Assembly: GCA_038214755.1 (NCBI GenBank)
Contig: JBBQRQ010000009.1
Coordinates: 9,587-73,586 of the forward strand
DNA from: Verrucomicrobiota bacterium
GTDB lineage: Bacteria; Verrucomicrobiota; Verrucomicrobiia; Limisphaerales; CANJXF01
Direction: 5' to 3'
DNA length: 64,000 nt
Below the pieces are notes generated by a model, which saw only the letters and a list, made by a program, of their open reading frames with translations, had not been told where the DNA came from and searched no databases. The translations under genes were made by a program, and so were the position numbers. Below, piece by piece: positions 35,686 through 57,246 of the stretch (its first letter is position 1; each line of letters begins with the position of its first letter).

Positions 35686-38600
35686 TTACGGACGCTCAAA
35701 GCGAATGCGGTAAAACCGCATGCCATTTGTACTCAGCGAGTCTGTATAGGATGACGAAATGCTCGTAGGCGGTTGATTGGTCCAGACATTCAGCCACACT
35801 TGATTCGTTGGGTTAAGCGTCAAACTGGTTTGTAGAGTTTGCCTCGCTTGCGTGCCCGCTTGCCAATCAATGCGAATGCCATTGGGAACTCTCTGCGCCC
35901 CGCTGATTCTGGGGTAAGAATTCGGATCAGTTGGATTCGTGTCCGCGATGTACTCGACAAAATTGCTCACGCCATCGTGGTCGAAATCACCATTGGTAGT
36001 TTGTGACAAGTTGCCGAAATACTGGAGTTCCCACCAGTCAGGGATGCCATTTGAGTTGGAGTCCTGATTCATGTTGATCTGAAATGGAGTGGAGGGTGAC
36101 CAATCCCCCAGCAGACTGAAATCCTGGGCGCGGGCACGGAGCAACACATTCGTGACTACGTTTCCGCCGAGGTCGCCCATTACATTCCAAGTCAACGAAT
36201 GATTTACACCTGTTGGCAAAGTAGCGACACGGTTGCTGGAACTATACGGTGCGCCATCTAAAGCCGTGAGCGTGGCGTTCTGCCAATTGGTCGCGCCGGA
36301 GAATTGGTATTGCAGGTAGGGTGTTGAAGCGTTGCCTTCGGCGTCCCAGAGACGAACCCTCAGGGCGGCCAGACTGCCCAGGATATTTGTCTGAGGTAAC
36401 ACGGCGGCGGCCGGTGGCGTTTGAACGATGCCTGCCGTTTGCGGCAGCACGGATTGCGGCGGCCACAGAATCACGTCGCATCGGGTTTGATTTATAGGAT
36501 CAACACGCAGGCCGATCAAACCTTCGCCTGACCCCAACCTTTTCACACCCGCCAGCGCGTGCCAGGCCTTGCCCCCGTTCTGCGCGCTGAACAATTGCCG
36601 CTGCAACGGATTAGTACCCGTCGCCGTCCAGGCGAACACCTGACCGTCCGGCTCGCCGGTGAAAAAGACCTCGTTGCTGGCGTTGAGGAAATTCACCGAA
36701 TCCAGGCCGTAACTCTGCGCCAATGTCAACGCGGCGATGGGCTGACGGGAAAGCGTCAACAAACTCGCGTTCGTTCCGCCCACCAGATATTCAGCCGTGA
36801 CAAAGTCGTCGCCGAAATCAATCAAGCCGTTGGCGTTCTTGTCGTCGGTAAACGTGTAGAAAATGGAACTGCCGTTGGTGGCGCGCAGAAAACCTGAGGT
36901 GAGTGAACTACCACGCCAGTTGAACGTGTGTGCAGTCGACGGTTCTGAGAGCGAGCGCACCGGAACCTCGATAATTCCAGGAAATATATTCAAAGGTACT
37001 TGGTAGTCGCGCCACTGTCCGTTCGCTTCAATGGCCGTATAAAACTCAAAGTTCTGTGGTTCGCCAGCGGCCCAGTTGGTGAAAGTAGAAGGTGAGCCGC
37101 TTATCCAGATGTACGGGTCAGCAAGCGTCTTCCTGTAAAAACCGATCCACGCTTGCACACCAAAATTGGTCGTGAGCCAGTTGTTTTCGGCCAAACTGTC
37201 TATTGTAACCAAGTTGCCTCCGAACTGCTGGGCATACGATTGAGCGGTTATCCAATCGGATTGCGTTGGCGTTAGAAAATAGGCCGACCCAGACCCGGCC
37301 CAGTATGTTGCATTCGCCGGAAGGGGTGGCGCAAAGGTGAGTTCGACTCCGCCAGAATCGAGTAGTCGAAAGCCCGTCCGATTTGCCATCAGGTCGGCAA
37401 CAGTGCCAAGTCCGCGATGGGCGACGTTTGCCAATAGCGGACGAACGATCCAATTAGTCGAAAAGTTTGCGGCTGATAATGAGCCGTCCGGTGAATTGGA
37501 TGTGGCGAGGCTGATAAGTATATCGGAACCACGCACGCCCAGTACGAACGCTGCTTGGTTCGTGGAAAGTGCCACCATATTCGATTGCCAAAATCCACCG
37601 TTGCTCGTGAACTCCATCACGCGCCCGCTACCGTTCGTCGTTCCACGCAGGCCAACGTAGATTGCAGCGCTTGGCCGGTTCGTCACTTGTCCGACGGCAA
37701 TGGAGGTGATACCGAACGAACCTACGTCCACTCGTTGTGTTGACCAGCCGCTCGAAGTTTCTGTTAGAACCAGTAGAAAGTTCGTGTTCGTTCCCGGATT
37801 GCCATCCGCGCCGATGACAATCTCCTCAGCACCAATTCCGTCCAGTTGGCCGACGCCGACAACGAAGTTGCTGGGTGTGAATGGCAGAACGAGCGAGGCG
37901 ATGTTTATGCCGGGATTGCCGAGAAGATTGGGAGTGGACAGCGCATTGGTCGGGCTGCTGCCGGCTTTCCATTCCTGATAATCCGTCCAGCCATCACCGT
38001 CGCTGTCAAAGTAGGGACTGGTGTTGTTGGTCAGACCGTTGAGAAAGCGCCAGAGCACCGGAAGCCCGTTCGTCTCAGCGGCGCGGGAGAGGACGGTGTA
38101 ACGCGCGGGATTTCCGTCGCCATCGTATTGGTAGGCAAGGGATATGCCGCGCGAAGATTCTTCGCCGACAAGTCGGTCGGTGCGGTCGTAGAAAAAACGG
38201 TTGGTTTTCTGGCCGCCGGTGAAGATTTCGTAGTCGGAAAGACCCAGTCCTCTCGAATAACCGTTGCGAGGATTGAACGGGGTGTTGGTGTTGGCAAGGC
38301 TGTATTGATATTCCTGCGAATTGGAGAGACCGTCAAAATCTGCGTCGTCGTTTGCGTCATTGATTCGCGGATTCAAACCGTTCTGCACCTCCCAGCCGTC
38401 CGGCATCCCGTCGCCGTCGGTGTCCTTCTCCAGCGGGTTCGTCCCGAAGACGAACAACTCGTCGTAATCGGAGAGACCGTCGCCGTCGGTGTCCGCATGG
38501 TCGATTCTTGTCCCAATTCGAAATTCGGTTATGTTGTCCACTCCATCTCCATCTTCGTCACCATTTGCAGACACAACTTGAAGATAAACTGGCGCACTCG

Positions 38601-39447
38601 TAACGGATCCAAAACTATTCGTGGCGTATAATGAATAGAATCCAGAGTTCCCCGCTCCAACATTGGTCAAAATCAAGGCGCTGTTGGTCGCCCCATTAAT
38701 GTTTGTATTATTATACCGCCATTGCAGTTGGATCGGCAGTAAACCACCTACAGCAAACTGGAGAGTGAATGTTTCGCCCGCTGGAATAAAATTCGACAAA
38801 GCCGGGGGGATTGTGATGGTCGGAGCAGAGGGGAAAACATGAACAGAGACGTTATCCAAACCCCAACTCTCGTCCTCAATTTGCTGTAAATTTTCGCCAT
38901 AAAATTCAATTGCAACAGAGTTGCTGCTGTGGTCGGCTTCAAACAAGAACCGATATATAAAATCCCCTCCGTATAGCGTATTTGTTAGCAACGCCCCTGT
39001 CCCTGTTGGATAATCTCCCCCCGGATATGCACCAGGGTAGGCCTGTCGCTTTTGTCCGCCCGAGTAGGCAAACGTAGTCCGTAGAAAATTTGTGCCTCCT
39101 TGAACTCTACAACCCCAAATATCAGGGCCGTATTGCGTGTCGTTACCATCCCATGAACCCAAGATGTAGAGGTCAAATGAGAGGCGAATCCGCTGGTGAG
39201 GCAGCAGATTCGTCAAAGTTAGCCGCACTGTCTGAAGGCCAAGTGGGCCAAGAAATTTCTCTCCAAAGGTAGGACTCGTTATATTTGTAACAGACCATTC
39301 CGAACCAGCGTTCGAGGAAAACCCGTTGGTATAAATAAGCTGGGGAGATGCGGAGCACCGAGCCAATCCAGTCTCCATAATTACGAGCAATAGCGCCGGA
39401 ATCAGGGCGAGGCTTCGTTTGGTTTTTGTGGCGCTTGCCGTTTTCAT
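35686..39447 (-). CDS. giant secreted protein: N-terminal SWDG-type domain, Ig-like, TSP3-like Ca-binding repeats, YD fragment, FG-GAP-like region, C-type-lectin-like domain
   Basis: Start at MKTASATKTKRSLALIPALLLVIMETGLARCSA (ATG at 39447); the track's additional 90 N-terminal aa overlap vapB. TSP3-like DTDGDGLSDYDE, DTDGDGMPDGWE, DSDGDGWTDYQEW. CTLD-like 36964-37305 (YWAGSGSAYFLTPTQSDWITAQSYAQQFGGNLVTIDSLAENNWL..WIGF..WISGSPSTFTNWAAGEPQN). Tail ..MRFYRIRFERP. Confidence 0.75.
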   Translation of the reverse strand: MKTASATKTKRSLALIPALLLVIMETGLARCSASPQLIYTNGFSSNAGSEWSVTNITSPTFGEKFLGPLGLQTVRLTLTNLLPHQRIRLSFDLYILGSWDGNDTQYGPDIWGCRVQGGTNFLRTTFAYSGGQKRQAYPGAYPGGDYPTGTGALLTNTLYGGDFIYRFLFEADHSSNSVAIEFYGENLQQIEDESWGLDNVSVHVFPSAPTITIPPALSNFIPAGETFTLQFAVGGLLPIQLQWRYNNTNINGATNSALILTNVGAGNSGFYSLYATNSFGSVTSAPVYLQVVSANGDEDGDGVDNITEFRIGTRIDHADTDGDGLSDYDELFVFGTNPLEKDTDGDGMPDGWEVQNGLNPRINDANDDADFDGLSNSQEYQYSLANTNTPFNPRNGYSRGLGLSDYEIFTGGQKTNRFFYDRTDRLVGEESSRGISLAYQYDGDGNPARYTVLSRAAETNGLPVLWRFLNGLTNNTSPYFDSDGDGWTDYQEWKAGSSPTNALSTPNLLGNPGINIASLVLPFTPSNFVVGVGQLDGIGAEEIVIGADGNPGTNTNFLLVLTETSSGWSTQRVDVGSFGITSIAVGQVTNRPSAAIYVGLRGTTNGSGRVMEFTSNGGFWQSNMVALSTNQAAFVLGVRGSDILISLATSNSPDGSLSAANFSTNWIVRPLLANVAHRGLGTVADLMANRTGFRLLDSGGVELTFAPPLPANATYWAGSGSAYFLTPTQSDWITAQSYAQQFGGNLVTIDSLAENNWLTTNFGVQAWIGFYRKTLADPYIWISGSPSTFTNWAAGEPQNFEFYTAIEANGQWRDYQVPLNIFPGIIEVPVRSLSEPSTAHTFNWRGSSLTSGFLRATNGSSIFYTFTDDKNANGLIDFGDDFVTAEYLVGGTNASLLTLSRQPIAALTLAQSYGLDSVNFLNASNEVFFTGEPDGQVFAWTATGTNPLQRQLFSAQNGGKAWHALAGVKRLGSGEGLIGLRVDPINQTRCDVILWPPQSVLPQTAGIVQTPPAAAVLPQTNILGSLAALRVRLWDAEGNASTPYLQYQFSGATNWQNATLTALDGAPYSSSNRVATLPTGVNHSLTWNVMGDLGGNVVTNVLLRARAQDFSLLGDWSPSTPFQINMNQDSNSNGIPDWWELQYFGNLSQTTNGDFDHDGVSNFVEYIADTNPTDPNSYPRISGAQRVPNGIRIDWQAGTQARQTLQTSLTLNPTNQVWLNVWTNQPPTSISSSYTDSLSTNGMRFYRIRFERP

Positions 39448-39470: not shown

Positions 39471-39728
39471 ATGAGCACGCTGACGATTCAATTGCCGGAT
39501 GACTTGAAAGTAGAACTGACGGTGGCCGCGCGCCGGTCGGGGAAGACGCCTGCGCGATTTGTGCGCGAGACGCTGGAGCATCGCTTGAAGCCCGGTCGTG
39601 TCCGGGCGCGCAGCCGTGCGTCGCTTTATGAATTGAGCCGCGACCTGTGCGGGAGCGTGACGGGCGGGCCGCCTGATCTCGCGCGGAACAAAAAATATTT
39701 GAAGGGTTATGGCGCATGGAAACGGTGA
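39471..39728 (+). CDS. vapB: ribbon-helix-helix (CopG-like) antitoxin
   Basis: MSTLTIQLPDDLKVELTVAARRSGKTPARFVRETLEHRL. Overlaps the downstream PIN gene by 13 nt. Confidence 0.75.
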   Translation: MSTLTIQLPDDLKVELTVAARRSGKTPARFVRETLEHRLKPGRVRARSRASLYELSRDLCGSVTGGPPDLARNKKYLKGYGAWKR

Positions 39729-40129
39729 TGGTGGATGCCGGGCCGTTGGTGGCTTATCTCAAGCGTGACGACGGGGATCACGTTTGGGCGAAGGAAGTGT
39801 TTCAACGTCTCACCACTCCGCTCTTGACATGTGACGCGGTATTGGGCGAAGTGGTTTTTCTTTTGCAGCAAACTCACGGCGGCACGCGACAATTGATCGA
39901 GCTTTTGGAGAATGGCCTCGTCGTGCCCGCCTTCGATCTGGCCGGCGAACTTCCCGCCGTGGGAGAATTGCTCCGCAAATATGAGAGCGTGCCGATGTCG
40001 CTGGCGGACGCCTGTCTGGTGCGGATGGCGGAATTGCACCGGGACGCGGTGGTGCTCACGCTGGACGGAGACTTCCGAATCTATCGCAAGAACCGGCGGC
40101 AGGCGATCCCGCTGATTTGCCCGGAGTGA
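39716..40129 (+). CDS. vapC: PIN-domain toxin (VapC-type ribonuclease)
   Basis: METVMVDAGPLVAYL..D..H (first acidic residue after the beta1 strand), TCDAVLGEVVFLL, SLADACLVRMAE, VLTLDGDFRIY. This is the typical PIN layout. Confidence 0.85.
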   Translation: METVMVDAGPLVAYLKRDDGDHVWAKEVFQRLTTPLLTCDAVLGEVVFLLQQTHGGTRQLIELLENGLVVPAFDLAGELPAVGELLRKYESVPMSLADACLVRMAELHRDAVVLTLDGDFRIYRKNRRQAIPLICPE

Positions 40130-40155
40130 TAGAACGCGGGGCGTGGAATAACACA

Positions 40156-40581
40156 ATGCCAACGATGAAAACCAAGAACCCCAATCCCGGCTCGCACGAA
40201 CATCTCCTACAGATTGTCGAGAAGCTGCCGAGCGATTTCGAGCCGTTCGGACGGCGGAAGCATCGTGGCTCGGATTGTTCGTGCGGTTGCAAACATTTTC
40301 TGAAGCTGGCTGGCGAGCTTGGTTCTGATTGGGGTGTCTGCGAGAATTCCAAAAGCCCGCGCTGCGGTTTGCTGACATTTGAGCATCAAGGTTGTTCTGA
40401 ATTTGAATCAGCGGAACGGTCGGCGCATGCATCACGACGGCATCCAGTTCTGGCAACGGAAACGCGCCACGCTCCAGCGGGTGGGCTGGGTGTAACCAGA
40501 ATGAATCGTGAGCACGGAAGCTTGGCTCGCAAGACAAGCGCGGCGGCACGAGCGCCGGAATCAGGGCGGGGCGGCGTTTGA
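40156..40581 (+). CDS. small Cys-rich hypothetical protein (DUF3027-like by memory, unverified)
   Basis: ATG 40156. GSDCSCGCKHFLKLAGELGSDWGVCENSKSPRCGLLTFEHQGCSEFE. The C-terminal ~55 aa are low-complexity and may not be genuine. Confidence 0.4.
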   Translation: MPTMKTKNPNPGSHEHLLQIVEKLPSDFEPFGRRKHRGSDCSCGCKHFLKLAGELGSDWGVCENSKSPRCGLLTFEHQGCSEFESAERSAHASRRHPVLATETRHAPAGGLGVTRMNREHGSLARKTSAAARAPESGRGGV

Positions 40582-40596
40582 TGTGGTGGCCTAAGT

Positions 40597-43500
40597 TCAT
40601 CGGCGGCGGGGGATCGTGAGAACTTGGCCTGGGCGAATGACATTCAGATTCTGGAGGCCGTTGGCGGCACCAATTGCTGCCGCACTGCTGCCGTAGTTGT
40701 ATCCAATGTTGCCGAGCGTGTCACCGGATTTGACTGTGTAGGTGGTTGATCCGCCTCCGCCGCTGCTGGTCGAAGTTGTGCCACCGCCTGATCCGCCACT
40801 TGGCTTTGTTGACGTCGCTGCTGTCGTCCCAGAGGCTTTGGGGGCAGCGACAGTGGCGGTGCGGCTAGGCATTGAAGGGGCTTGCGATGATGAAGCCTTC
40901 TGAACTCCGTATCCTAAAGAGTTAAGAATATTTCCGCCTACATTGCCGGCAGCATTTATTCCATTCATATATGAATTCATCAAAAACTTGGAAAACTTCA
41001 AGATTGGATCGGTTGTGTGATTGGCTACTTGATCACCGATATAAAATGCAACACCAACTCCGCCGACACTTGCCCCACTCTCAATAAGCTGTCCTCCAGC
41101 ATGTATAGTATGAGCGAATGATTTAAATTGAAATCCGAGCTCTGCAATTTGCTCGCGCCGTTCGTTTCCCATACCAGATGCAACAGTTAAATCTACAGCG
41201 GCGCTTTCAGCAAGGCCCTCAAGGCTTCCTTTAAACCAGCCAAGAGCAAATGCTGCTACCCACGGGTTCTGCCCATTTGGGTCAGTATACTTTAGCGGGT
41301 TTTCTTGCGCATAAGAAAACGCTTCTGGCTTCCACCCCGGCCCAATATTCTTCACCGGATCGCTGGATAGAAACACTCCTGCATCCGCCGAGTAATACCG
41401 CGCTCGCATGAAGTAGAGACCGGGCAATTCCTCCATCACGCCTTGTGAACCGACGAAAAGATACGAATTGGAAAATTGAGATTGAAAATTCGTTGAGCCG
41501 AGGCTGCGGCCATAGGGCGTATAGGCGTATTGCGCCACAAGGTTTGCGCTTCCATCGGTGAGCGCGCTGATGTTGGCTTGCGCATCGGCGTGATAACAGG
41601 TCAGGCCATTCGTAGCGTTTACTTTGTAGGACAGGTCGGGGCCGTGGACGTACCAGGCAGTGATGTTGCCACTGGCATCCGTGTCGCAGAGAGTCCGCTC
41701 CATGCTCCCTTGCAAGTCGAGAACGTAACGGGTTTCCACAGCATCCAACGTCCGCGAGATGCGGCGACCGAGCGCGTCGTAGCGGTTGGTGATAAGCTTG
41801 TCGGTCATCGGCATGAGCCGCCAGAAGATGGAAGTAGTGCGGTTATCTTCGTCGTAAGTCAGGGCCCAGCTTTGTCCACCACCACTGGCGTTGGTCATGT
41901 TGCCGCTGGCATCGTATTGATAGGTGAAGTTGTTTGTAGAATTCAGGACATCGACGCGATTGGTGATACGGCCCGCTGGGGTGAAGCGGGATGTTTCATC
42001 AATGAGCGACGGTAACGGCCAGGCAAATGTTCCTCGTTCGCCACCGCCGGTTTTGTTGCCATTGCGGTCGTAGGCGTAAGTCAGCGCGATGTTGATCGAG
42101 TTGGAACTGATAAGCGACGGCGCATAACTGAGGCTGGTAATTCGGCCTGCGGTATCAAAGGAGTTCGTCTGGGTAATGCCATTGGGGTAGGTCCGTGCCA
42201 GGAGACGGTCCGCCTTATCGTAAGAGTAAGTCATTTGCCTTCCCGCCCAATCCACTTGATTGGTGACGCGACCGATGGCATCGAAGCGGTTCACCAAAAC
42301 CTTCCCCGCTGGATAAGTCAACGCAACCACTCGCCCCAAAGCATCGTATCCATAATGAATGGTTTGTGAAAAAGCATCGGTCACGTCAATGGCGCGATCC
42401 AGTGAATCATAAGTAAAGCGCGTCGTGGTGGGCGTCAGTCCAACGCGACGAGTGATGGTGCGGGGATTGTTGTTGTCGTCGTAGCTGAAGGTGTTTTGTC
42501 TTCCGGTATTGAATGTCACGGATTGAACGCGACTAACCGGGTCGTAAATAAGAGTGCGCGTCGTGCCATTCGGATCGATTTGTTGTCGCAAGCGAAGAAG
42601 CTCGTCGTAGTCATAACTCCACTGGTTCGTGTCCTGATTGATCTCTGTCTTACGCTCATTACGCAGGCCGTAGGTCATGACGTAGTGACCGCCCAGCGCG
42701 TCCGTGATGTTGGTGATGTTGGCAACCCCATCGTAGTCATAGAGCCACTGGAAATTTTCGGCATCCACCCATTTGGTGAGGCGTCCGCGTCCATCATAAA
42801 AGTGCAGCGAAGGATAGCCGTTTGGCGTAGTAATTTGTTTAATTCGTCCGGCCGCATCGTAGGAAGTGGTTCTGGTATCGCCTTGAGGATTCGAGTCAGC
42901 AATCGCACGGTTTAACCGATCATAAGTTTTCGTCCAACGTTGAGCAACCTGATCCATTAACGCAATAACATTGCCGTTGGCATCAAAGACATTTGTCGTA
43001 GTAAACCCCAGCCCGTTACTCACTCGCTCCAGGCGATTGGCGGAATCATAATAATTCGTGCTGGTATTGCCTATTGGATCGGTGATGCGTTCCAGTTTTC
43101 CGCGAGTTGAGTAGAAAAATAAATTCGTATTACCCGAGCGATCTATTGTTTGGTTGCGTTGGTTTGCCGCGTCATAAAAATGCCGGGTGTTTTGTCCCTT
43201 GCCGTCGGAAGCAGCGAGGAGATTTCCATTGGCATCAAAGGTCCTGGTAAATATGCGGTTCAAGGGGTCCACGGTGCGGACAACATTGCCGTTAAGGTCG
43301 AGTGTTAAGAAGGTCAAATCTCCCAGCGGATTCATCTCGGCAAGTTTCCAGCCGACATCATTGAGCGTGTAAGTCCACGTGCTCAGCGCCGCGTCGGTTT
43401 TGGATTTCAAGAATCCATTCGTGTCGTAGCTCATGCTGGAAACGTGCGCGTTAGCATCCGTTGCGGTCATGACAAGTCCGTTAGTGAAATAAGTATAGGT

Positions 43501-45552
43501 CACCAAAGCGCCAAGCGCATCGTAATGACGAAGCAGGTTTCCGTTCGTATTGTTCAGTTCGTAAAAGTTCGTCCAGCCCAGAGGATTGATGTCCTGAGCC
43601 GCCTTATTGAAGAACGGATGGAAAACCCAGCGATTCACTTCGCCAAGCGCATTGGTGCTGGCAATGACATTAGCGCGGTCGTCATAGCCAAAAGTGGTCA
43701 TCCAGCCCAATGGTTCGGTGATGCTGATGCGATTGCCATTCGTGTCGTAAGTATAGGTGGTGATATTCGTCAGCGGGTCTTGCTGCGAGAGGATATGCCC
43801 CTTGCGGTCGTAGGTTTCAACCCATTGATTAGTTCCGGAATCGGTGCGCCGTATTTGTCGTTTGCCGGGCACTCCATACTCAGTCGTTGTTGCGCGATTC
43901 AATGCATCGACCTGATTGGTAATTCTCCCATACTTATCATATTGAACCAAAACATTCGTGTTGACGCGTGGATCGACGATTCGATCAAGCAAGCCGTTGG
44001 TGCTGTAAAGGAATTGCCATGTCGTATTGATATTTGTGTAAAGGCCGGAGGTGTTGGTGATGGATTTGGAGATGAGGCGGTTGGTCGAGTCGTAAGTAAA
44101 ATTGGCCAGCCATTGACCAAATGTGACGTTGGTGACCAGTCCTGCCTGGTAATTGAAAACATATTTGCCGCCAGCAGAATCCACAGCTTGCGTGACCACG
44201 CCGCTGATTTCGTTCCAAAGAATCTGGACGGCGTTGCTGTTGAAATCGCGGATGGCCGTAAGACGTCCACGCATGATGGCCGCACCGGAATCTGGTTTAC
44301 GAAAAATGTAAACAAGCCGCTCCGGCGTGGTCCATTGGCAGTTGGTGGAGGTAAGGGTGAATTCCCCGTGATACTCACGGTCCCGAGTGAAATACAAACC
44401 TGAGTTCAGATCCTTATCCCACGTTACGAGCGTGCCATCCCAAGACATCAAGCCAATAGTGTCCGTGTCGCCTAACGGGGAAAAAGCCTGGGCTGGCAGC
44501 ACCCGAGTTTCAAAAGTGTGGCGCCATCCTTTGCCCAGCGGGCCGGTGGCGTAGGGGTCGAAGTTGACCAAGCTGTAGGTCCCGGAGACGTTCGCGCTGC
44601 TATAGCCAAATCGGAAATCGAATGTGATTCCCGGCGTCGGTCGCGCCTGCGCGGTTTGCTGCCAGGAAAAACCACCCGACAACGGCGAGAGTGCGTCGCG
44701 ACCACCATTCTTTCGTGTATCGAAAGCGGATTGTTCACCCGCTTGATTCGCTTCTTCAAATGTCACAGGTCCGGAAGCAGTCGCGGATGCAGTTCCACTC
44801 GGCACCGGCGCAGGAGCAAAATTACGGAACTGGTCGGCGGTGTTGGTCGAGAATGCCAGAGGGAAGTAGCCTTTGAGATTCAAGGAGGGGTCGTTGGTTG
44901 GCTGGGAGGAGAACATGTTCTGGACGATGAACGCCTGCGCGTCGGTCGGAACGCTCTGGTAAACGGAAACCTCCTGCACTTCGCCGTAAAGGTATTGGCT
45001 TGAGCCCCAACCACCGATTGAAACCCCCTGAGTCACGGTGGAATTGCCGACCGTGCCGCCGCTGGAAAACATCAAGCGGCCATCTGTGTAGCCAGTGAAT
45101 ACCTCGCCCTGACGAACCACAGCGACATGATACCAACGCTCCAGATAAGGCCGGGCGATCAGAGTATTTGTGTACAATCCCGTTCCGCGCGCGGAGAACT
45201 CAATGTTCCCGGTGTTGATATTGAATTGAATCAGGTAAGCATGAGCGTCGGCCTGTGAACCGGTGAGCCGATTGACCAAAATGGTCATGTTTTCGGTAAG
45301 GTTCGTGCCGGATGGAATGGAGATCTTGAACCAGCACTGGACGATCATGGCATTGGCCGAGGAATTCCAACTCAGTCCACCTGTGGAATCGGTTACCTCA
45401 AGACGAGCGTTGCCGGGAAAGAGCGCAGCATGGCCGACGCAGATCGGGAGGAGTAGCACAGAGAACAGCAGAGAGACGCGAGAGCCAAAGACACGGTTCA
45501 CCGGGTGTCTTGCTCCATCGCGTTTCGAGAATCTGAGTTTATCCGCGTTCAT
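40597..45552 (-). CDS. RHS-repeat protein with N-terminal signal peptide and LamG-like domain, YD-repeat shell, and a C-terminal variable module plus LysM
   Basis: 1651-aa ORF with dozens of YD repeats (..YxYDxxGNxxxxTD..). Core-end motif YFMRARYYSADAGVFLSSDPV..YAQENPLKYTDPNGQ. It is followed by 223 aa: a ~125-aa Gly-rich hydrophobic module, an S/T/G linker, and LysM (YTVKSGDTLGNIGYNYG..NLNVIRPGQVLTIP, about 40609-40743). Confidence 0.9.
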   Translation of the reverse strand: MNADKLRFSKRDGARHPVNRVFGSRVSLLFSVLLLPICVGHAALFPGNARLEVTDSTGGLSWNSSANAMIVQCWFKISIPSGTNLTENMTILVNRLTGSQADAHAYLIQFNINTGNIEFSARGTGLYTNTLIARPYLERWYHVAVVRQGEVFTGYTDGRLMFSSGGTVGNSTVTQGVSIGGWGSSQYLYGEVQEVSVYQSVPTDAQAFIVQNMFSSQPTNDPSLNLKGYFPLAFSTNTADQFRNFAPAPVPSGTASATASGPVTFEEANQAGEQSAFDTRKNGGRDALSPLSGGFSWQQTAQARPTPGITFDFRFGYSSANVSGTYSLVNFDPYATGPLGKGWRHTFETRVLPAQAFSPLGDTDTIGLMSWDGTLVTWDKDLNSGLYFTRDREYHGEFTLTSTNCQWTTPERLVYIFRKPDSGAAIMRGRLTAIRDFNSNAVQILWNEISGVVTQAVDSAGGKYVFNYQAGLVTNVTFGQWLANFTYDSTNRLISKSITNTSGLYTNINTTWQFLYSTNGLLDRIVDPRVNTNVLVQYDKYGRITNQVDALNRATTTEYGVPGKRQIRRTDSGTNQWVETYDRKGHILSQQDPLTNITTYTYDTNGNRISITEPLGWMTTFGYDDRANVIASTNALGEVNRWVFHPFFNKAAQDINPLGWTNFYELNNTNGNLLRHYDALGALVTYTYFTNGLVMTATDANAHVSSMSYDTNGFLKSKTDAALSTWTYTLNDVGWKLAEMNPLGDLTFLTLDLNGNVVRTVDPLNRIFTRTFDANGNLLAASDGKGQNTRHFYDAANQRNQTIDRSGNTNLFFYSTRGKLERITDPIGNTSTNYYDSANRLERVSNGLGFTTTNVFDANGNVIALMDQVAQRWTKTYDRLNRAIADSNPQGDTRTTSYDAAGRIKQITTPNGYPSLHFYDGRGRLTKWVDAENFQWLYDYDGVANITNITDALGGHYVMTYGLRNERKTEINQDTNQWSYDYDELLRLRQQIDPNGTTRTLIYDPVSRVQSVTFNTGRQNTFSYDDNNNPRTITRRVGLTPTTTRFTYDSLDRAIDVTDAFSQTIHYGYDALGRVVALTYPAGKVLVNRFDAIGRVTNQVDWAGRQMTYSYDKADRLLARTYPNGITQTNSFDTAGRITSLSYAPSLISSNSINIALTYAYDRNGNKTGGGERGTFAWPLPSLIDETSRFTPAGRITNRVDVLNSTNNFTYQYDASGNMTNASGGGQSWALTYDEDNRTTSIFWRLMPMTDKLITNRYDALGRRISRTLDAVETRYVLDLQGSMERTLCDTDASGNITAWYVHGPDLSYKVNATNGLTCYHADAQANISALTDGSANLVAQYAYTPYGRSLGSTNFQSQFSNSYLFVGSQGVMEELPGLYFMRARYYSADAGVFLSSDPVKNIGPGWKPEAFSYAQENPLKYTDPNGQNPWVAAFALGWFKGSLEGLAESAAVDLTVASGMGNERREQIAELGFQFKSFAHTIHAGGQLIESGASVGGVGVAFYIGDQVANHTTDPILKFSKFLMNSYMNGINAAGNVGGNILNSLGYGVQKASSSQAPSMPSRTATVAAPKASGTTAATSTKPSGGSGGGTTSTSSGGGGSTTYTVKSGDTLGNIGYNYGSSAAAIGAANGLQNLNVIRPGQVLTIPRRR

Positions 45553-45558
45553 CCGAGG

Positions 45559-46050
45559 TTAAAATTTCGCAGCGGCCATTTGCTTTACATTGTTGCAGCG
45601 AACAACTTTGTAAGTTTGATTTTCGGCAAAGAGAACAATTTCTGATCGCAGGCCGTTCTGTTCCATTTTAAATGCCACACATTTTTCAGGAGAGACGCCC
45701 GCCTGCCTTGACCAAGTTTCCGCTTCTTTTGGGAACACTTCCTTTAATGACCCAAAGACGCCTTGCTTTTTCAGCAGAGTCAGGCCCGCATCTGAAATTT
45801 CGTCTTGCAGGCTTTTTCGGATGAAGTCCAGTTGTTCGTTGGAAGTCCGACTTCGGACTGCGTCAGGAATCACGATCCGGTCGAGGAAAGTCGAACTGCC
45901 TGAACTGAGGTCACCAGAAAATTGCCTTAGAGATACTAACGCCCGGCGTCGAGGCGCATCGTGCCTCCAATGAAAATACAAAAGGCAAGACACCGCCCCA
46001 ACCATCACCCCGCCAATTAGCCATGCCCGATTCATTGTGCGGCGTTTCAT
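45559..46050 (-). CDS. small membrane-anchored hypothetical protein, 6 nt upstream of the RHS gene
   Basis: 163 aa with one N-terminal TM helix (AWLIGGVMVGAVSCLLYF). Its stop lies 6 nt from the RHS ATG, suggesting an operon. Confidence 0.55.
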   Translation of the reverse strand: MKRRTMNRAWLIGGVMVGAVSCLLYFHWRHDAPRRRALVSLRQFSGDLSSGSSTFLDRIVIPDAVRSRTSNEQLDFIRKSLQDEISDAGLTLLKKQGVFGSLKEVFPKEAETWSRQAGVSPEKCVAFKMEQNGLRSEIVLFAENQTYKVVRCNNVKQMAAAKF

Positions 46051-49747: not shown

Positions 49748-49776
49748 TTCGCACCCGCCGGCGGCAGATGCTACCC
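49748..49776. repeat. REP-like family A, single copy (inverted orientation)
   Basis: ttcgcacccgccggCggcagatgctaccc matches the 48312 copy at 28 of 29 positions. It covers the Uma2 stop codon. Confidence 0.85.
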
Positions 49777-50244
49777 AGCTCGGAAAAGCTCCGCGATTTC
49801 AATGCGCAAATCGGGAAGGAGTTTCTCGATCAGTGTTTCTTTGTTCGCCAGAATTTTTTGCAACGCCAGGCCGTAGGGACTGCCGTGATAAACTTCCACA
49901 TTGTCGTAGCGCGGATCGATCATCCAAAGGCGCGGCAGGCCGGTTTCTTCGTAAATCGATTTTTTCACCACGGTATCGAACCGATGATCGTCGGAATTGA
50001 TAATCTCCGCCGCGAGCCAGAGTCGATTGTTGGCGGTGGTGACGATGGCGAGATCGGGCCGCACCAAAGTGCCGGGCGAAAGTTGGATCACGGAACGCGG
50101 TGAGAGCAAACGTGAACTGGGAATTTCGGTCAAACATTTCGCGATTTGCGCGTGCAAGTGGGAGCAAATTTTTTCGTGGCGCAAACCGGGGGCGCTGCGC
50201 AAAAAAGTTTCGCCTTCGAGAATCTCCTGATACGGCTTAGACAT
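49771..50244 (-). CDS. Uma2-family (DUF820) putative PD-(D/E)xK endonuclease
   Basis: ..LVRPDLAIV...LWLAAEIINSDDHRFDTVVKKSIYEETGLPRLWMIDPRYDNVEVY matches the Uma2 D...E.S....D..K..Y pattern. The start overlaps the uvrA-paralogue stop by 8 nt (ATGTCTAA). Confidence 0.7.
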   Translation of the reverse strand: MSKPYQEILEGETFLRSAPGLRHEKICSHLHAQIAKCLTEIPSSRLLSPRSVIQLSPGTLVRPDLAIVTTANNRLWLAAEIINSDDHRFDTVVKKSIYEETGLPRLWMIDPRYDNVEVYHGSPYGLALQKILANKETLIEKLLPDLRIEIAELFRAG

Positions 50245-53131
50245 TTTTCAGCACTTTTCGCAAAAAACGTCCGGTATGCGATCGCCGGTTGGCCGCGATT
50301 TCTTCGGGCGTCCCTTGCGCCACAATCTCTCCGCCCGCCGTGCCGCCTTCCGGCCCGAGATCGATTACCCAATCGGCTTCCGCAATCAAATCCAGATTGT
50401 GTTCAATCACGATGACGGAATGGCCGGAATCGACGAGGCGCTGCAAAACCTCCACGAGCTTCCGCACGTCGGCCATGTGGAGACCAATCGTCGGTTCTTC
50501 GAGAATAAAAATGGATGAACCTGGCTTGCGCGTCTCTCTTGCTAATTCCAGTTCCGCTTGTTTTTTGGTTTGAATTTTCGCGTCGAGCTTTTGATTTCTA
50601 AAACCGGAGAGCAAATGCGTGACAAGTTTCATCCGCTGCGCCTCACCGCCGCTCAACGTCGGACTGGTTTGCCCGAGCTTGATGTAATCGAGTCCAGTAT
50701 CGCGCAACGCTTCCAGGGGGCGGCGAATTCGCGTTTGCGCCGCAAAAAAATCAATCGCTTCCGCCACGCTGAGATCGAGAATTTGCGCAATATTTTTCCC
50801 GGCAAACTCGACATCCAAAGTTTCTCGGTTGAAGCGACAGCCACCGCACGTTTCGCAACGCACAAACGCTGGCGGTAAAAAATTCATTTCCAGTTTGATC
50901 GTGCCCGCGCCCTCGCATTCGGGGCAGCGGCCTTGCGCGCTGTTGAAAGAAAATCGGCTCGCGGAATAGCCGCGCATCCGCGCTTCCGGCATTTGCGCGA
51001 ACAGTTGGCGGATGTCATCGAAGAAACCGACATAGGTCGCAGGAATCGAACGCGGTGTCCGCCCAATCGGCGCTTGATCCACTTCGTAAACGGATTGGAT
51101 GGATTCAAATCCGCGCAACTTCATGTTTTGCAAAGCAGGAGAATCCGCTGCGGAAGTTTTTTCGGCATTGTTTTTTTTTGATCTCACTTTGGCTTGAAGC
51201 ATCGGCAATAAACATTCGCGCACCAACGTGCTTTTGCCCGAGCCGCTCACGCCGGTGACGACGACAAATCGATTGAGCGGAAAACTCACGGAAAGATTTT
51301 TTAGATTGTGCACCGAAGCGTTTTGAAGCGTGAGCCAATAATTCGTAGCAGCCGAGGTGACGAGGCTCTGACTTTTTCCCCCACCAATTTTTTTTGAAGT
51401 GAGCCTCCTCACGTCGGCTCCTACAGAAACAGGCCGCCGTTTTCCCGAATGAGGGAAACATTTTTTCTCGCGCAAACAAGAGCCTGTGATCGAATCGCGA
51501 TGGCGCATCAATTCTTTCAACGTGCCCGTTGCCACAATTTCTCCGCCGTGAACTCCCGCGCCGGGACCGAGATCAATCACGTGATCGGCGTGACGCATCG
51601 TCTCTTCATCATGCTCGACCACGACAAGCGAATTGCCGCGCGATTTCAGAATCTCCAGCGCGGAAAGAAGTTGTTCGTTGTCGCGGGCGTGCAGACCAAT
51701 CGTCGGCTCGTCAAGAATGTAAAGCACCCCGCTAAGGTTTGAACCGAGTTGCGCCGCGAGGCGAATGCGTTGTGCTTCACCGCCGGACAAAGTCGTCGCG
51801 CCGCGCCCAAGTTGCAGATAACCCAAGCCGACTTCGCAAAGAAATTTCAGGCGCTCGCGAATCTCCGGCAAAATATCGCGGGCGATTTCCTTGTCGCGCC
51901 CTTTGAATTTCAACGTGCAAAAGAATTTTAGCGCGCTATCCACGGAAGCGTTACCGATGTCGATGATCGTAGGGGAGGCTTCCAGCCTGCCCTTTTTGGG
52001 GGCTGCGTGATTTGTGCTCATGGAAGGAATGGGCAGGCTGGAAGCCTGCCCTACGTTTAACCGCACCGTTCGCGCCACGGGATTCAACCTGGCCCCATTG
52101 CACTCAGGGCAAATCTCTCGTTTGCCTTCCTGCCATTCAAACCATGATTCCTCGATGGCGTCGGCGCGCGCGCCTCGCTCGACCTCCGGCAAATAAAAAA
52201 GTTCGCCGAAGCCGCGACACTTCGGACACCAGCCTTGCGAAGAATTGTAGCTAAAATTTTTCGGGTCCAGTTTCTCGAAGGATTGTCCGCACCCGGGACA
52301 AGCACGATGAATCGAGTGGATGGAAACTTTCTGATCGTTCGAGAGGGCGAACAAAGTCCCGTTTCCGAGACGCAATGCTTCGTCGATCAACTGTTGCGCA
52401 GTTTTGGAAAGGGGGGCAGAAGACTTGCCTATTTTTCGGAGGGGCAGGGGAGACGCCTGCCCTACTTTTTTATCGAGGATGCCGACGACGATTTCTACGT
52501 CGTGCTCGCGGAAACGATCCAACCGAAGGCGTTCGCTGGTGGAATAGATTTTTCCATCCGCGCGCACTTCGGCATAGCCATGTTTGGCCGCCCAGGCAGC
52601 AACATCGGTGTGAAAACCTTTTCGGTTTTTCACGACCGGGGCGAGCAGCAGCAAATCGCCGCGCCGCTTCATTTCCTCGCGGAGTTTTTTTCCAAGTTGA
52701 TCGCGGGTTTGCGCTTCGACCGGCAAATCGCAGTCGGGACAATATTGCGTTCCGAGCCGCGCGAAGAGCAGTCGAATGAAATGATAAATTTCCGTGACGG
52801 TCGCGACGGTGCTTTTTCCGCCGCCGCGCGAATTGCGTTGTTCGATGCTGACGGTCGGAGGAATGCCCGTGATCAAATCCACTTCCGGCCGCGAAAGTTG
52901 CTCGACGAATTGACGAACATAAACGTTCATCGAATCCAGGAAACGCCGTTGGCCTTCGGCAAATAAAATGTCGAAAGCCAATGTGCTTTTGCCCGAGCCG
53001 CTGACGCCAGTGATGACAACGAATTGATTTCGCGGAATCGAGACGGACAAATTTTTCAGATTGTGTTCGCGCGCGCCGTGAATGCGAATGGCGTTGTCGG
53101 AGGCCGCGAGAATTTTTCGTCCATTAATCAC
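50237..53131 (-). CDS. uvrA: UvrA-family ABC ATPase (excinuclease subunit A paralogue 1)
   Basis: HGAREHNLKNLSVSIPRNQFVVITGVSGSGKSTLAFDILFAEGQRR. Two Walker A motifs, two LSGGEAQR signatures, Zn-finger Cys pairs. DSMNVYVRQF replaces the canonical ESLSAYARQF. Confidence 0.9.
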   Translation of the reverse strand: MINGRKILAASDNAIRIHGAREHNLKNLSVSIPRNQFVVITGVSGSGKSTLAFDILFAEGQRRFLDSMNVYVRQFVEQLSRPEVDLITGIPPTVSIEQRNSRGGGKSTVATVTEIYHFIRLLFARLGTQYCPDCDLPVEAQTRDQLGKKLREEMKRRGDLLLLAPVVKNRKGFHTDVAAWAAKHGYAEVRADGKIYSTSERLRLDRFREHDVEIVVGILDKKVGQASPLPLRKIGKSSAPLSKTAQQLIDEALRLGNGTLFALSNDQKVSIHSIHRACPGCGQSFEKLDPKNFSYNSSQGWCPKCRGFGELFYLPEVERGARADAIEESWFEWQEGKREICPECNGARLNPVARTVRLNVGQASSLPIPSMSTNHAAPKKGRLEASPTIIDIGNASVDSALKFFCTLKFKGRDKEIARDILPEIRERLKFLCEVGLGYLQLGRGATTLSGGEAQRIRLAAQLGSNLSGVLYILDEPTIGLHARDNEQLLSALEILKSRGNSLVVVEHDEETMRHADHVIDLGPGAGVHGGEIVATGTLKELMRHRDSITGSCLREKKCFPHSGKRRPVSVGADVRRLTSKKIGGGKSQSLVTSAATNYWLTLQNASVHNLKNLSVSFPLNRFVVVTGVSGSGKSTLVRECLLPMLQAKVRSKKNNAEKTSAADSPALQNMKLRGFESIQSVYEVDQAPIGRTPRSIPATYVGFFDDIRQLFAQMPEARMRGYSASRFSFNSAQGRCPECEGAGTIKLEMNFLPPAFVRCETCGGCRFNRETLDVEFAGKNIAQILDLSVAEAIDFFAAQTRIRRPLEALRDTGLDYIKLGQTSPTLSGGEAQRMKLVTHLLSGFRNQKLDAKIQTKKQAELELARETRKPGSSIFILEEPTIGLHMADVRKLVEVLQRLVDSGHSVIVIEHNLDLIAEADWVIDLGPEGGTAGGEIVAQGTPEEIAANRRSHTGRFLRKVLKNV
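51345..51424. repeat. palindromic element translated in-frame within UvrA paralogue 1
   Basis: Arms gtagcagccgaggtgacgaggctc and gagcctcctcacgtcggctcctac. Read as ..VGADVRRLTSKKIGGGKSQSLVTSAATNY.. Confidence 0.8.
51969..52054. repeat. palindromic element (GGGCAGG-N7-CCTGCCCTAC units, inverted pair) in-frame within UvrA paralogue 1
   Basis: gtaggggaggcttccagcctgccc (51969-92) and gggcaggctggaagcctgccctac (52031-54). Read as ..GQASSLPIPSMSTNHAAPKKGRLEASPT.. Confidence 0.8.
52411..52465. repeat. two tandem hairpin units of the same family, in-frame within UvrA paralogue 1
   Basis: ggggggcagaagacttgcc followed by ggggcaggggagacgcctgccctac. Read as ..VGQASPLPLRKIGKSSAPLSK.. Confidence 0.65.
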
Positions 53132-57000: not shown

Positions 57001-57246
57001 GTCCATGCGGTCGAGGAACTGGCGGGCGTAGGGCGAAAAAGTTTCGACGTAACGTCGCTGCCCTTCGGCAAAAAGTGTGTCGAACGCGAGGGAACTTTTT
57101 CCAGAGCCGCTCAAACCGGTGATGACAATCAATTTTCCGAGCGGCAGATCGAGGTCGAAATTTTTGAGATTGTTATGGCGCACACCGCGAAGGCGAATGA
57201 ATTTTGGCGCGGACTTTTTGAACATGGCGGCGGAATGTAAATCCAC
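54034..57246 (-). CDS. uvrA: UvrA-family ABC ATPase (paralogue 2, 1070 aa)
   Basis: RGVRHNNLKNFDLDLPLGKLIVITGLSGSGKSSLAFDTLFAEGQRRYVETFSPYARQFLDRMDKPQVDSIEGIPPAIAIEQRN. Two Walker A motifs, two LSGGE signatures, Zn-finger Cys pairs. Confidence 0.9.
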   Translation of the reverse strand: MDLHSAAMFKKSAPKFIRLRGVRHNNLKNFDLDLPLGKLIVITGLSGSGKSSLAFDTLFAEGQRRYVETFSPYARQFLDRMDKPQVDSIEGIPPAIAIEQRNTVKTTRSTVGTMTEICDYAKLLWPHLAQLHCKNCGQLVRKDSPRMIWENIVAADVRRRSDTRSIHPPPHVGGYDEIGGYDEILITFDIPLSEKISLEESLALISKQGYQRLLVVNEILRVDESLDALSKLKPTTLTVVQDRLKLIDSNRKRFVEACEQAYHFGKGKLSIREVDVIPRSAFPVPRFFSNRFHCAHCDIEYREPSPALFSFNHPLGACPTCRGFGRTIAIDYDLAIPDRAKTLAEGAVRPWQTGQGAESQQDLLKFCKLRKVPTNIPFKDLPRQFQDWVIEGDPGYGKDSAHEWPRAWYGVKGYFRWLESKAYKMHVRVLLSRYRLYKTCADCGGTRFQPNTLGFTISDSRFTSEVPNDASLVNRKSQIHIADFYQLSIRDALQFVEALQSHRKNFQSTDPLVLAMNEVQSRLRFLDEVGLGYLTLDRATRTLSGGETERVNLTTCLGSGLVNTLFVLDEPSVGLHARDTERLIKILQRLRDSGNTVVVVEHESSVMRAADQIVDLGPGHGAAGGELVFQGTFREILKSKTSLTGKYLSGKKKIKIPQRRKVQSAAAILSAENLSTPLANCRQNVGSTLVLRNASTHNLKNISVEIPLTRFVCITGVSGSGKTTLVRDVLLPALETNFKKEQIGDKIQAEEDQENSEIPNPNSKIQLSGWENLGRVVLVDQSPLGKTPRSNPAVYIGAFDEIRELFAQTDLANQRGLNASAFSFNSAQGQCEKCRGAGFEKIEMQFLSDIFIRCPECNGRRYRPHILEIRLSSKFKVQSSKLFRRSTLTSQLSTSGWSIADLLEATVDETIAFLEDFSQSRHAQRGVERLRLLQEVGLGYLRLGQPINTLSGGESQRLKLVSHLAEANVAESGQKKPTLFLFDEPTTGLHFHDVRVLLKVFQRLVDAGHSVVVIEHNLDVIKSADWAIDLGPEAGVDGGKIVAVGTPESIAAHAESHTGHALRAFAPMGE
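54562..54640. repeat. low-complexity short-repeat block (GTTGAG xN then CTTTGAAC xN) in-frame within UvrA paralogue 2
   Basis: tgaagttgagagttgagaggtgagggttgag...ctttgaactttgaaccttaaactttgaactcaac. Read as ..SSKFKVQSSKLFRRSTLTSQLSTS.. Confidence 0.55.
54949..54986. repeat. GGATTT(N)GG short direct-repeat tract in-frame within UvrA paralogue 2
   Basis: ttggattttggaattcggatttgggatttcggaatttt. Read as ..ENSEIPNPNSKIQ.. Confidence 0.5.
55184..55256. repeat. 73-bp palindromic element in-frame within UvrA paralogue 2
   Basis: Arms gtgctgccgacattctgtcggcag and ctgccgacagaatggcggcagcac, with one mismatch. Read as ..SAAAILSAENLSTPLANCRQNVGSTL.. Confidence 0.8.
55810..55892. repeat. ~80-bp palindromic element in-frame within UvrA paralogue 2
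   Basis: Termini gatttgggatttacgatt and aatcgtaaatcccaaag. Read as ..TISDSRFTSEVPNDASLVNRKSQ.. Confidence 0.7.
56695..56793. repeat. palindromic element plus an adjacent 18-bp tandem duplication, in-frame within UvrA paralogue 2
   Basis: Arms atcgtagccgccgacgtgaggaggcgg (56719-45) and ccgcctcctcacgtcggcggctacgat (56767-93). aatttcatcgtagccgcc occurs twice in tandem (56695-712, 56713-730). Read as ..AADVRRRSDTRSIHPPPHVGGYDEIGGYDEI.. Confidence 0.85.

Follow-up and report, generated by a model that had tools for sequence, protein, structure and literature searches.

The 64,000-nucleotide (nt) stretch of contig JBBQRQ010000009.1 analysed here (the window) comes from a Verrucomicrobiota bacterium and encodes a large RHS/YD-repeat protein, the C-terminal tip of which contains an exchangeable slot. 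Within one open reading frame (ORF), a hypervariable, AT-rich module is held between two conserved arms: the RHS-associated core on its N-terminal side, and a spacer rich in serine, threonine and glycine (S/T/G) followed by a LysM domain on its C-terminal side. Across related loci the modules and the tails that follow them assort independently, and no immunity gene linked to the tip was found in any locus with examinable downstream DNA. Tentatively, the tip is read as an auto-cleaved, immunity-independent payload in which an effector module is joined to an address tag for peptidoglycan or chitin.

Architecture of the RHS protein

According to the ORF list and its translation, the RHS protein is a single ORF of 1651 amino acids (aa); its coordinates, stop codon included, are given with those of the other features in Table 1. 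A first-pass annotation of this DNA, made without database searches, described an N-terminus with a Sec signal and a LamG-like domain in place of PAAR or VgrG features. Pfam and NCBIfam bore out the domain part of this, the N-terminus matching only LamG and no PAAR or VgrG features being detected in the protein; the Sec-type signal peptide is putative, read by eye from the translation. The N-terminal 290 residues are 39–61% identical across more than 25 loci. At the beginning of the YD-repeat shell (aa 291–374), a DUF6531-like plug gave a weak Pfam signal (E 0.0029, below cutoff).

The TIGR03696 match that defines the core terminates exactly at YAQENPLKYTDPNGQ (aa 1428). Two aspartates are carried by the core, D1398 (in SSDPVKNIG) and D1424 (in TDPNGQ), and the second motif, D..G, is invariant in about 50 related tips. 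In Tse5 the aspartates are D1141 and D1164 and the protein is cut between L1168 and I1169 (PMC10684867); placed from that cut, the predicted self-cleavage site of the present core would lie between Q1428 and N1429. The two aspartates are 26 residues apart here versus 23 in Tse5.

The sequence behind the core amounts to 223 aa, or approximately 22 kDa, and the order that had been annotated for it (core end, module, S/T/G spacer, LysM) was confirmed together with its coordinates. The LysM domain scored 47.6 bits against PF01476 (curated cutoff 20.9). In a single-sequence AlphaFold2 (AF2) model of a 247-aa construct it adopts a beta-alpha-alpha-beta fold (strand 198–202, helices 209–215 and 220–226, strand 240–244), with a predicted local distance difference test score (pLDDT) of 78–91. 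Judged from profile score and model, the LysM assignment is bona fide, and glycan binding is predicted.

An exchangeable slot between two conserved arms

The tip was compared with those of approximately 57 related loci; the nucleotide comparison of the window covered 79 loci, and about 50 tips were clustered. Scans of genomes and metagenomes returned one orthologous full-length gene of 1667 aa, L006, from a Verrucomicrobiota metagenome-assembled genome, and a partial copy, L005, while 51 further loci share the core end FVGSQGVMEELPGLYFMRARYY. The related RHS clade probably belongs to the Verrucomicrobiota. The contig of L005 is titled 'uncultured Bifidobacterium sp.' and has a Verrucomicrobiota-type RHS tip together with the shared cassette array described below; this label is probably a binning error.

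Identity between the window protein and L006 is 47% in the N-terminal region, 62–69% in the shell, 76% in the core, 28% in the module, 61% in the spacer and 72% in the LysM domain. At the DNA level, homology of all loci to the window breaks off at 41327–41269 and, in LysM-tailed loci, restarts at 40980–40734 and extends beyond the stop codon; positions 41268–40981 match nothing in the comparison with the 79 loci. L001 is 81–83% identical in DNA to L035 and L066 on both flanks, with no detectable similarity across its module of about 510 nt. Because the flanks are conserved in this comparison and the module is dissimilar, the module is an exchangeable slot between two conserved arms within one ORF. 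The swapped tip that had been expected from the first-pass annotation is shown directly by the contrast between module (28%) and flanks (61–76%) in L006 and by the nucleotide breakpoints. The swapped unit, however, had been drawn too wide: only the module is exchanged, and the conserved flank takes in the spacer, the LysM domain and the DNA that follows the stop codon.

A constant layout was found in about 50 tips, in which the D..G motif is followed by a variable module of 120–170 aa, an S/T/G spacer and a tail. The modules of these loci sort into approximately 29 BLAST clusters, and Pfam searches with ten other module families from related loci gave no matches. Tails are of two types: LysM, sometimes with a short basic extension, or a Ser/Ala/Val/Gln-rich amphipathic stretch that ends in F..GLFGG plus basic residues and shows a sub-threshold resemblance to lipid-binding amphipathic helices. 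The window LysM is 58–79% identical to that of one subtype of related tips, in which the modules are unrelated. Modules were also found to be shared across tail types, between (LysM-tailed locus first) L040 and L057 (54% identity over 147 aa, E 9e-36), L054 and L037 (E 3e-17), L029 and L042 (E ~1e-7), L043 and L067 (E ~1e-7), and L006, of the window family, and L034 (E 3.6e-5). Modules and tails assort independently.

Several features of individual tips were noted in the course of this comparison. In LysM-tailed tips the spacer carries a motif, SRTAxVAAPKASGxTAATSTKPSG (window 40798–40869, aa 1562–1585), that recurs after unrelated modules in L001, L029, L040 and L035/L066; alternatively tailed tips have (S)RTPxAGxY, again after unrelated modules (L034, L041, L052, L057 and L061). 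Such a motif may serve as a second site for processing, as a site of modification or as a recombination arm. Phospholipase A2-like motifs can be seen in the modules of L033 (~5120–5330; GNYGGPGW...IHDYLY) and L061 (~7570–7760; YGNCGGPG...AQHDIDF), both unconfirmed and without a Pfam match at E<=1; if true, they would favour a slot with envelope-directed effectors. L003 has a truncated window-family module followed by spacer and LysM (protein P0007), and a perfect 23-nt inverted repeat, ctccttagagcgtgtttgaaaat / attttcaaacacgctctaaggga (nt 61–90 and 236–260), lies just where its module homology starts; this could be a fold-back element, the insertion of a miniature inverted-repeat transposable element or an assembly artefact. 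The tip of L077 (10001–10975) is split, with a module ORF that ends early and the spacer and LysM in a separate ORF of 83 aa located 47 nt downstream, which is either a frameshifted or decaying allele or a sequencing error.

Composition, relatives and predicted fold of the module

The module differs sharply in composition from the remainder of the gene. Its GC content is 0.444 and its GC content at third codon positions (GC3) is 0.33, compared with 0.523 and 0.61 in the core, and GC3 is back to 0.52–0.65 in the spacer and LysM. GC is therefore not uniform across the gene, a possibility that the first-pass annotation had raised against its own reading: in a scan of 127-codon segments, the lowest GC3 of the RHS gene begins at aa 1431. 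None of 1,088 such segments in 14 other large ORFs of the window fell below 0.433 (mean 0.598, standard deviation (sd) 0.060), and the module lies about 4.4 sd below them. The GC3 dip is real, large and confined to the module. The AT-rich tip that had been judged by eye at approximately 40900–41300 holds for the module; the spacer and LysM domain belong to the conserved flank and are not AT-rich.

Module GC3 was lower than core GC3 in 37 of 37 non-redundant loci (means 0.465 and 0.716, respectively; Wilcoxon p 1.5e-11), with an intermediate value of 0.60 in the tails. Because it recurs in every one of these loci, the AT-rich tip is a systematic property and not a recent accident of this genome, and the idea of a one-off acquisition falls away. 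In classical Rhs systems, the combination of a GC-rich core with an AT-rich tip is the characteristic signature.

Searched as a single sequence, the module had no match in Pfam, NCBIfam, PADLOC or PDB sequences, nor in the last of these with a nine-sequence profile. An exhaustive HMMER search of 1.84 billion representative proteins gave seven matches, of which five are true relatives, all of them RHS-tip fragments, two bearing the same spacer and LysM; the others, P0004 and P0006, are repetitive proteins and were judged spurious. Word-indexed protein searches found nothing with the single sequence and one fragment only with a six-sequence profile. Across six module sequences a single residue, a Gln, is invariant.

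The first-pass annotation had described the module as glycine-zipper-like and membrane-active, a description that finds no support for this allele. It is composed of 15% Gly (Gly, Ala and Ser together 36%), and its counts of GxxxG (4 versus 2.7 in composition-matched shuffles, P = 0.26) and of small-xxx-small-xxx-small (9 versus 5.4, P = 0.10) do not exceed those of shuffled sequences. Kyte-Doolittle hydropathy peaks at 1.05 when averaged over 19 aa and at 1.40 when averaged over 17 aa, under the transmembrane range. About half of the related tips start with a strongly hydrophobic helix (Kyte-Doolittle 1.5–2.5), whereas the window allele does not. The AF2 models of the module are all-alpha, with three long helices, and have low confidence (pLDDT 44 for the single sequence and 48.5 with a six-sequence alignment). 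The earlier statement that no toxin family could be matched stands as far as Pfam, NCBIfam, PADLOC and PDB sequences are concerned; the Foldseek check proposed with it gave, for this low-confidence model against the PDB, a best E of 6.7, which is meaningless.

Search for an immunity gene and the upstream partner

The absence of a same-strand immunity gene noted in the first-pass annotation was confirmed in the window and holds across the whole clade. In L031, L033, L035, L040, L041, L066, L067, L070 and L072, the start of a gene for a large secreted protein coincides with the RHS stop codon or lies no more than 25 nt from it; these proteins are at least 680 aa long, and most extend past the 2.5-kb region that was scanned. 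L001, which has a window-family module, has its next gene 16 nt after the RHS stop and is without the Cys-rich ORF that converges on the RHS gene in the window. Orphan toxin-tip and immunity cassettes had been suggested as a further check; no orphan core-end fragments, tips or immunity arrays were found in the window or within 10 kb in 57 loci.

Two ORFs near the RHS stop were considered as immunity genes and rejected. The first, the sole minus-strand ORF beyond the RHS stop (39707..40600, 297 aa), shadows genes on the plus strand, among them one with a Pfam PIN domain, and has no family and an implausible composition. The second is the Cys-rich ORF, which had been put forward as a protein that might neutralise the tip; it is the third gene of a repeat-bracketed cassette, its homologues adjoin unrelated RHS tips in L029 (75%) and L039 (67%), and it is absent from L001.

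Immediately upstream of the RHS gene lies a gene for a protein of 163 aa, here called up163, for which no Pfam or PADLOC match was obtained. It occupies this position in at least 17 related loci, at 37–52% identity and regardless of tip family, and has 28 homologues in a large protein collection, all unnamed. As a cognate immunity protein up163 was rejected, since it is homologous across loci with unrelated tips; it is probably a dedicated partner of the RHS clade, with a role in export, assembly or anchoring. The up163 gene upstream and the large secreted-protein gene downstream are both conserved whatever the tip.

Comparison with known RHS systems

The locus resembles classical Rhs systems (Escherichia coli Rhs and Dickeya RhsA/B; PMC3482391) in its YD shell, its core ending in DPxG, and its variable tip, which is set off at the core end, is AT-rich relative to the core and is replaced by recombination. 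It differs from them in that no immunity gene follows the tip and no orphan tip/immunity arrays were seen, in that only an internal module is swapped and a conserved spacer and LysM or alternative tail follow in the same ORF, and in that a putative Sec signal and LamG stand in place of PAAR or VgrG, with a module that matches no known toxin family. An RHS shell, a core and a variable, low-GC tip are present; a linked immunity gene and a recognisable toxin are not.

WapA-type proteins (Bacillus subtilis WapA; Streptococcus suis WapA-CT1, PMC12704120) share with the window protein the Sec signal, which is putative here, the RHS shell, a wall- or carbohydrate-binding domain in the same polypeptide and the lack of a type VI secretion system (T6SS). 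WapA tips act as nucleases or tRNases and have an immunity gene downstream, whereas no immunity gene is present here. The LysM repeats of S. suis WapA are N-terminal and attach the toxin to the cell that makes it (PMC12704120); in the window protein the LysM comes last, after the predicted cleavage site, and the producer is apparently diderm.

Tse5 (RhsP1) of Pseudomonas aeruginosa (PMC9637101, PMC10684867), which also has an Rhs shell and an aspartyl-protease core motif, releases a non-enzymatic, helical C-terminal fragment that acts on the envelope, and is the closest functional analogy of the favoured reading. Unlike the window protein it is delivered by a T6SS, its C-terminal fragment of 149 aa has no LysM, and it has an immunity protein, Tsi5; the window module is also less hydrophobic. 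The module had no significant match to PDB sequences, including with the nine-sequence profile, a comparison in which the presence of the Tse5 C-terminal fragment among deposited chains was unchecked. In the window tip none of the features of a Tse5-like pore-former was detected (similarity in sequence or fold, hydrophobic helices or zippers, a membrane immunity protein).

In PVC-delivered polymorphic toxins (PMC3482391), OmpA-type domains likewise place a peptidoglycan-binding domain at the very end of the toxin scaffold, but these differ in domain superfamily (OmpA versus LysM) and in the delivery scaffold. Zhang et al. 2012 (PMC3482391) described LysM as an adhesion domain of polymorphic toxins that is not located at the extreme C-terminus; OmpA alone was found there, and was proposed to mark non-catalytic, peptidoglycan-binding toxins. 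The C-terminal placement of LysM is atypical by that account. In the literature, which was incompletely covered, no account was found of RHS proteins with LysM behind the core or of Sec-type RHS clades that lack immunity genes.

Two further systems are comparable in part. The hypervariable regions of TcC are self-cleaved payloads of an RHS cocoon that have no immunity protein; unlike them, the window protein has no TcA or TcB. Teneurins are LamG/YD-shell proteins as well, and their C-terminal region stays attached outside the shell. The cleavage-motif aspartates are retained here, unlike in teneurins.

Interpretation of the tip

In the favoured reading, the region would form the payload-bearing end of a LamG-RHS 'cocoon' protein exported by the Sec route. 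The payload would consist of an exchangeable, fast-evolving and probably all-alpha-helical effector module, a low-complexity spacer with a short conserved motif, and a conserved LysM that may act as an address tag for polymers of N-acetylglucosamine, that is, peptidoglycan or chitin. The core would cut itself between Q1428 and N1429 and the shell would retain the ~22-kDa payload until release, after which the LysM would tether it to exposed cell wall and the module would act on the envelope non-enzymatically. Module alleles would be replaced by recombination between the core end and the spacer/LysM, with a low-GC pool as their source. No cognate immunity gene was found in the clade, and for this reason the target would most likely be non-kin, namely organisms with accessible peptidoglycan or chitin; the wall of the producer, apparently a diderm, would be shielded by its outer membrane. 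As we infer cleavage, encapsulation and toxicity, and with them the target of the payload, this reading is held tentatively.

Several observations weigh against it. The module has no recognisable toxin fold or conserved catalytic-type residues, its structure was predicted with a pLDDT of 44–48, and the hydrophobicity and glycine-zipper counts of the window allele are unremarkable. Solved stand-alone Rhs shells hold toxins of 15–16 kDa (PMC10684867), and a payload of 223 aa is about 50% larger; full encapsulation that includes the LysM is uncertain for this reason. The spacing of the core aspartates departs from that of Tse5, as given above. The missing immunity gene fits a non-toxic role equally well, and no secretion-system genes that would provide a route across the outer membrane were found in the 64-kb window.

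Such a non-toxic role is the substance of the main alternative, which is rather doubtful. Here the C-terminal region would leave the shell as in teneurins and fix the RHS/LamG particle to the envelope of the producer, the LysM binding the producer's peptidoglycan, the alternative amphipathic, basic tail binding the membrane and the S/T/G stretch serving as a spacer; the module would be exposed at the surface, its diversity driven by phages, predators or hosts. It would account for the lack of an immunity gene in every locus and for a module without enzyme-like conservation or a known toxin fold, and both tail types resemble envelope-binding devices, though the likeness of the alternative tail to lipid-binding helices is sub-threshold. 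The gene also lies in a conserved, operon-like array of lectin, immunoglobulin-like (Ig) and carbohydrate-binding module (CBM) proteins, and LysM is known to anchor Sec-dependent WapA proteins to the producer wall (PMC12704120). The anchoring LysM of WapA is, however, N-terminal and not behind a cleavage site (PMC12704120), whereas the tail here sits behind an intact core in which both aspartates are conserved throughout the clade. Characterised Rhs proteins use this motif to cut the C-terminus from the shell, and a tail removed in this way could not tether it. The sharply bounded recombination and AT-rich cassette seen here are, moreover, a hallmark of Rhs toxin tips.

It is improbable that the protein is a classical kin-discriminating antibacterial Rhs toxin, the immunity function of which is unlinked, is supplied by up163 in a broad-spectrum manner, or was lost when a ribbon-helix-helix (RHH)/PIN cassette was inserted. 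RHS architecture with a polymorphic, AT-rich tip is indeed the classical pattern, up163 is tightly linked (6-nt gap) and moderately divergent (37–52%), and of this genome no more than 64 kb could be inspected. Against this, the up163 proteins of L006 and L034, which have modules of the window family, are 42 and 43% identical to that of the window, compared with up to 52% in loci with unrelated modules, the opposite of what is expected of cognate immunity. The insertion-free loci L001, L031, L035, L040 and L066 are also without a small downstream gene, so the insertion deleted none. Replacement of the module spares both flanks, and no immunity gene therefore travels with it; nor were orphan tips or immunity arrays seen within 10 kb in the 57 loci.

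The least probable alternative, a Tc-toxin-like or other capsule directed against eukaryotes such as protists, fungi or algae, would need no immunity and would fit a polymorphic, immunity-less tip like that of TcC, a LysM that recognises chitin as well as peptidoglycan and an N-terminal LamG lectin that could bind eukaryotic glycans, but it finds no TcA/TcB-like partners in the window or the related loci, its modules are not recognisable enzymes as known TcC regions are, and it overlaps the favoured reading, from which only the target differs.

Genes and repeats around the RHS gene

The features of the window that bear on the RHS locus are listed in Table 1. The large neighbouring ORFs mostly encode proteins with Ig, LamG, Kelch, PKD, lectin and CBM domains (Pfam), and among some 30 large ORFs of the window there were no genes for a T6SS, for any other secretion system or for TcA or TcB.

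Table 1. Location of the RHS gene, its parts and its neighbours in the window
Feature	Coordinates	Strand	Evidence or remark
RHS/YD-repeat gene	40597..45552	-	RHS_repeat PF05593 E 4e-62; YD_repeat_2x TIGR01643 E 1.4e-42
Sec-type signal peptide, ~aa 1-42	45427..45552	-	by eye in translation: basic n-region, hydrophobic VSLLFSVLLLPICVG, then VGHA/A
LamG (Laminin_G_3/concanavalin-like lectin), aa 71-206	44935..45342	-	Pfam PF13385 E 9.9e-10, 39.2 bits (cutoff 27.6)
YD-repeat shell, aa 291-1343	41524..44682	-	nine RHS_repeat stretches; internal repeat self-matches (tblastn)
RHS-associated core, aa 1344-1428	41269..41523	-	TIGR03696 E 9.5e-13, profile positions 1-76 of 76
Hypervariable AT-rich orphan module, aa 1429-1555 (127 aa)	40888..41268	-	exchangeable, putative payload slot; no family match
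S/T/G-rich spacer, aa 1556-1603 (48 aa)	40744..40887	-	translation; conserved motif SRTATVAAPKASGTTAATSTKPSG; 61% identical to L006
C-terminal LysM, aa 1604-1651	40600..40743	-	Pfam LysM PF01476, aa 1605-1648, E 1.6e-12; basic end ...IPRRR
up163 gene (163 aa)	45559..46050	-	N-terminal membrane anchor and ~130-aa soluble domain; stop 6 nt before RHS start codon
Inserted cassette	39471..40581	+	RHH-like antitoxin, PIN/VapC-like toxin, Cys-rich DUF3027-like ORF
RHH-like ORF (85 aa)	39471..39728	+	RHH_1 E 0.013, below cutoff; 13-nt overlap with PIN gene
PIN/VapC-like gene	39716..40129	+	Pfam PIN E 7.7e-11
Cys-rich ORF	40156..40581	+	DUF3027 E 6.6e-5 to 1.9e-4, below cutoff
35-nt direct repeat, copy 1	39387..39421		within signal-peptide codons of downstream 1343-aa gene
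35-nt direct repeat, copy 2	40546..40580		minus strand encodes KRRPALIPAL
Downstream large secreted protein	35686..39447	-	true start ATG 39447; TSP3_bac 1.5e-12, Lectin_C 7.6e-7, Ig

The genes that converge on the RHS gene form a plus-strand cassette in which, as in VapBC, a PIN toxin gene is preceded by a small overlapping ORF. The cassette is flanked by the two copies of the 35-nt direct repeat, which are 86% identical and spaced 1159 nt apart; the exact 18-mer at the centre of the repeat, AGCGCCGGAATCAGGGCG, has two sites in the window against a chance expectation of 0. The repeat encodes signal-peptide codons (KR..ALIPAL). Copy 1 heads the downstream lectin-like gene, whereas copy 2 follows an ATG that overlaps the RHS stop (ATGA, 40597–40600) and then degenerates; copy 2 is the relic head of a gene formerly next to the RHS gene. 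The same arrangement of relic head and repeat was found in L003, L005, L006 and L029. Ancestrally, the gene for the large secreted protein directly followed the RHS gene, and since insertion-free loci have a gene of this kind at the ATGA or no more than 25 nt away, the convergent arrangement in the window is secondary.

Opposite-strand toxin-antitoxin cassettes lie between repeat copies in L005, L006, L029, L032, L034, L039, L042, L043 and L071. Elsewhere, the 18-mer separates successive cassettes six times in L005 (1241–8020), and it occurs twice in L029 (3358–4802) and once in the cassette-free L040 (10950–10967). The 5' end of the post-RHS gene (...ALIPAL codons) looks like a site-specific integration hotspot for opposite-strand toxin-antitoxin cassettes, in which each insertion seems to regenerate the head of that gene. 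The pattern resembles that of an integron or an attachment site; no integrase was seen in the window. The Cys-rich ORF of the window exceeds its 86-aa L029 homologue, which terminates in EHQGCRAFEAVER, by about 55 aa; the extra part enters the 35-nt repeat, stops at 40581 and probably arose at the insertion junction as a by-product, rather than being conserved protein.

Two UvrA-like ABC ATPase genes were noted within 7 kb of each other on the minus strand (50237–53131 and 54034–57246). The latter matches the UvrA DNA-binding and interaction domains of Pfam; the former was judged UvrA-like from its translation alone. A Uma2-family endonuclease gene (49771–50244) comes directly after the gene at 50237–53131, and a DNA methylase gene (57339–58658) is nearby.

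Implications for RHS systems

The accepted view of polymorphic toxins, Rhs among them, is that each is paired with an immunity protein and that the pairs act in competition among kin. Of the Rhs hallmarks, the clade described here keeps the shell, the motif for self-cleavage and an AT-rich tip that recombines. Two rules are broken: no tip-linked immunity gene was found in the loci with examinable downstream DNA, and the tip is itself modular, with a variable slot joined to a conserved wall or membrane tag. The shuffling of modules and tails, the universal lack of immunity genes and the conserved partner gene are all unexpected for Rhs systems. As a generalisation, and one unlikely to hold in full, the clade may consist of RHS capsules with two-part, immunity-independent payloads, in which a non-enzymatic module from a low-GC pool is combined with an interchangeable envelope tag, used on non-kin and always accompanied by a small membrane-anchored partner. 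If true, this would be without precedent among polymorphic RHS systems in two respects: the targeting and effector functions of a cleaved tip would be shuffled independently of each other, and the producer would protect itself by means other than immunity proteins.

If the payloads are active, the clade would hold approximately 29 new effector families without a known fold, self-protection would be achieved through the accessibility of the target instead of an antidote, and LysM-tagged cargo could serve as wall-directed antimicrobials. If they are non-toxic, bacterial RHS shells would have a use other than toxin delivery, and the signatures of a polymorphic tip alone would not imply a toxin.

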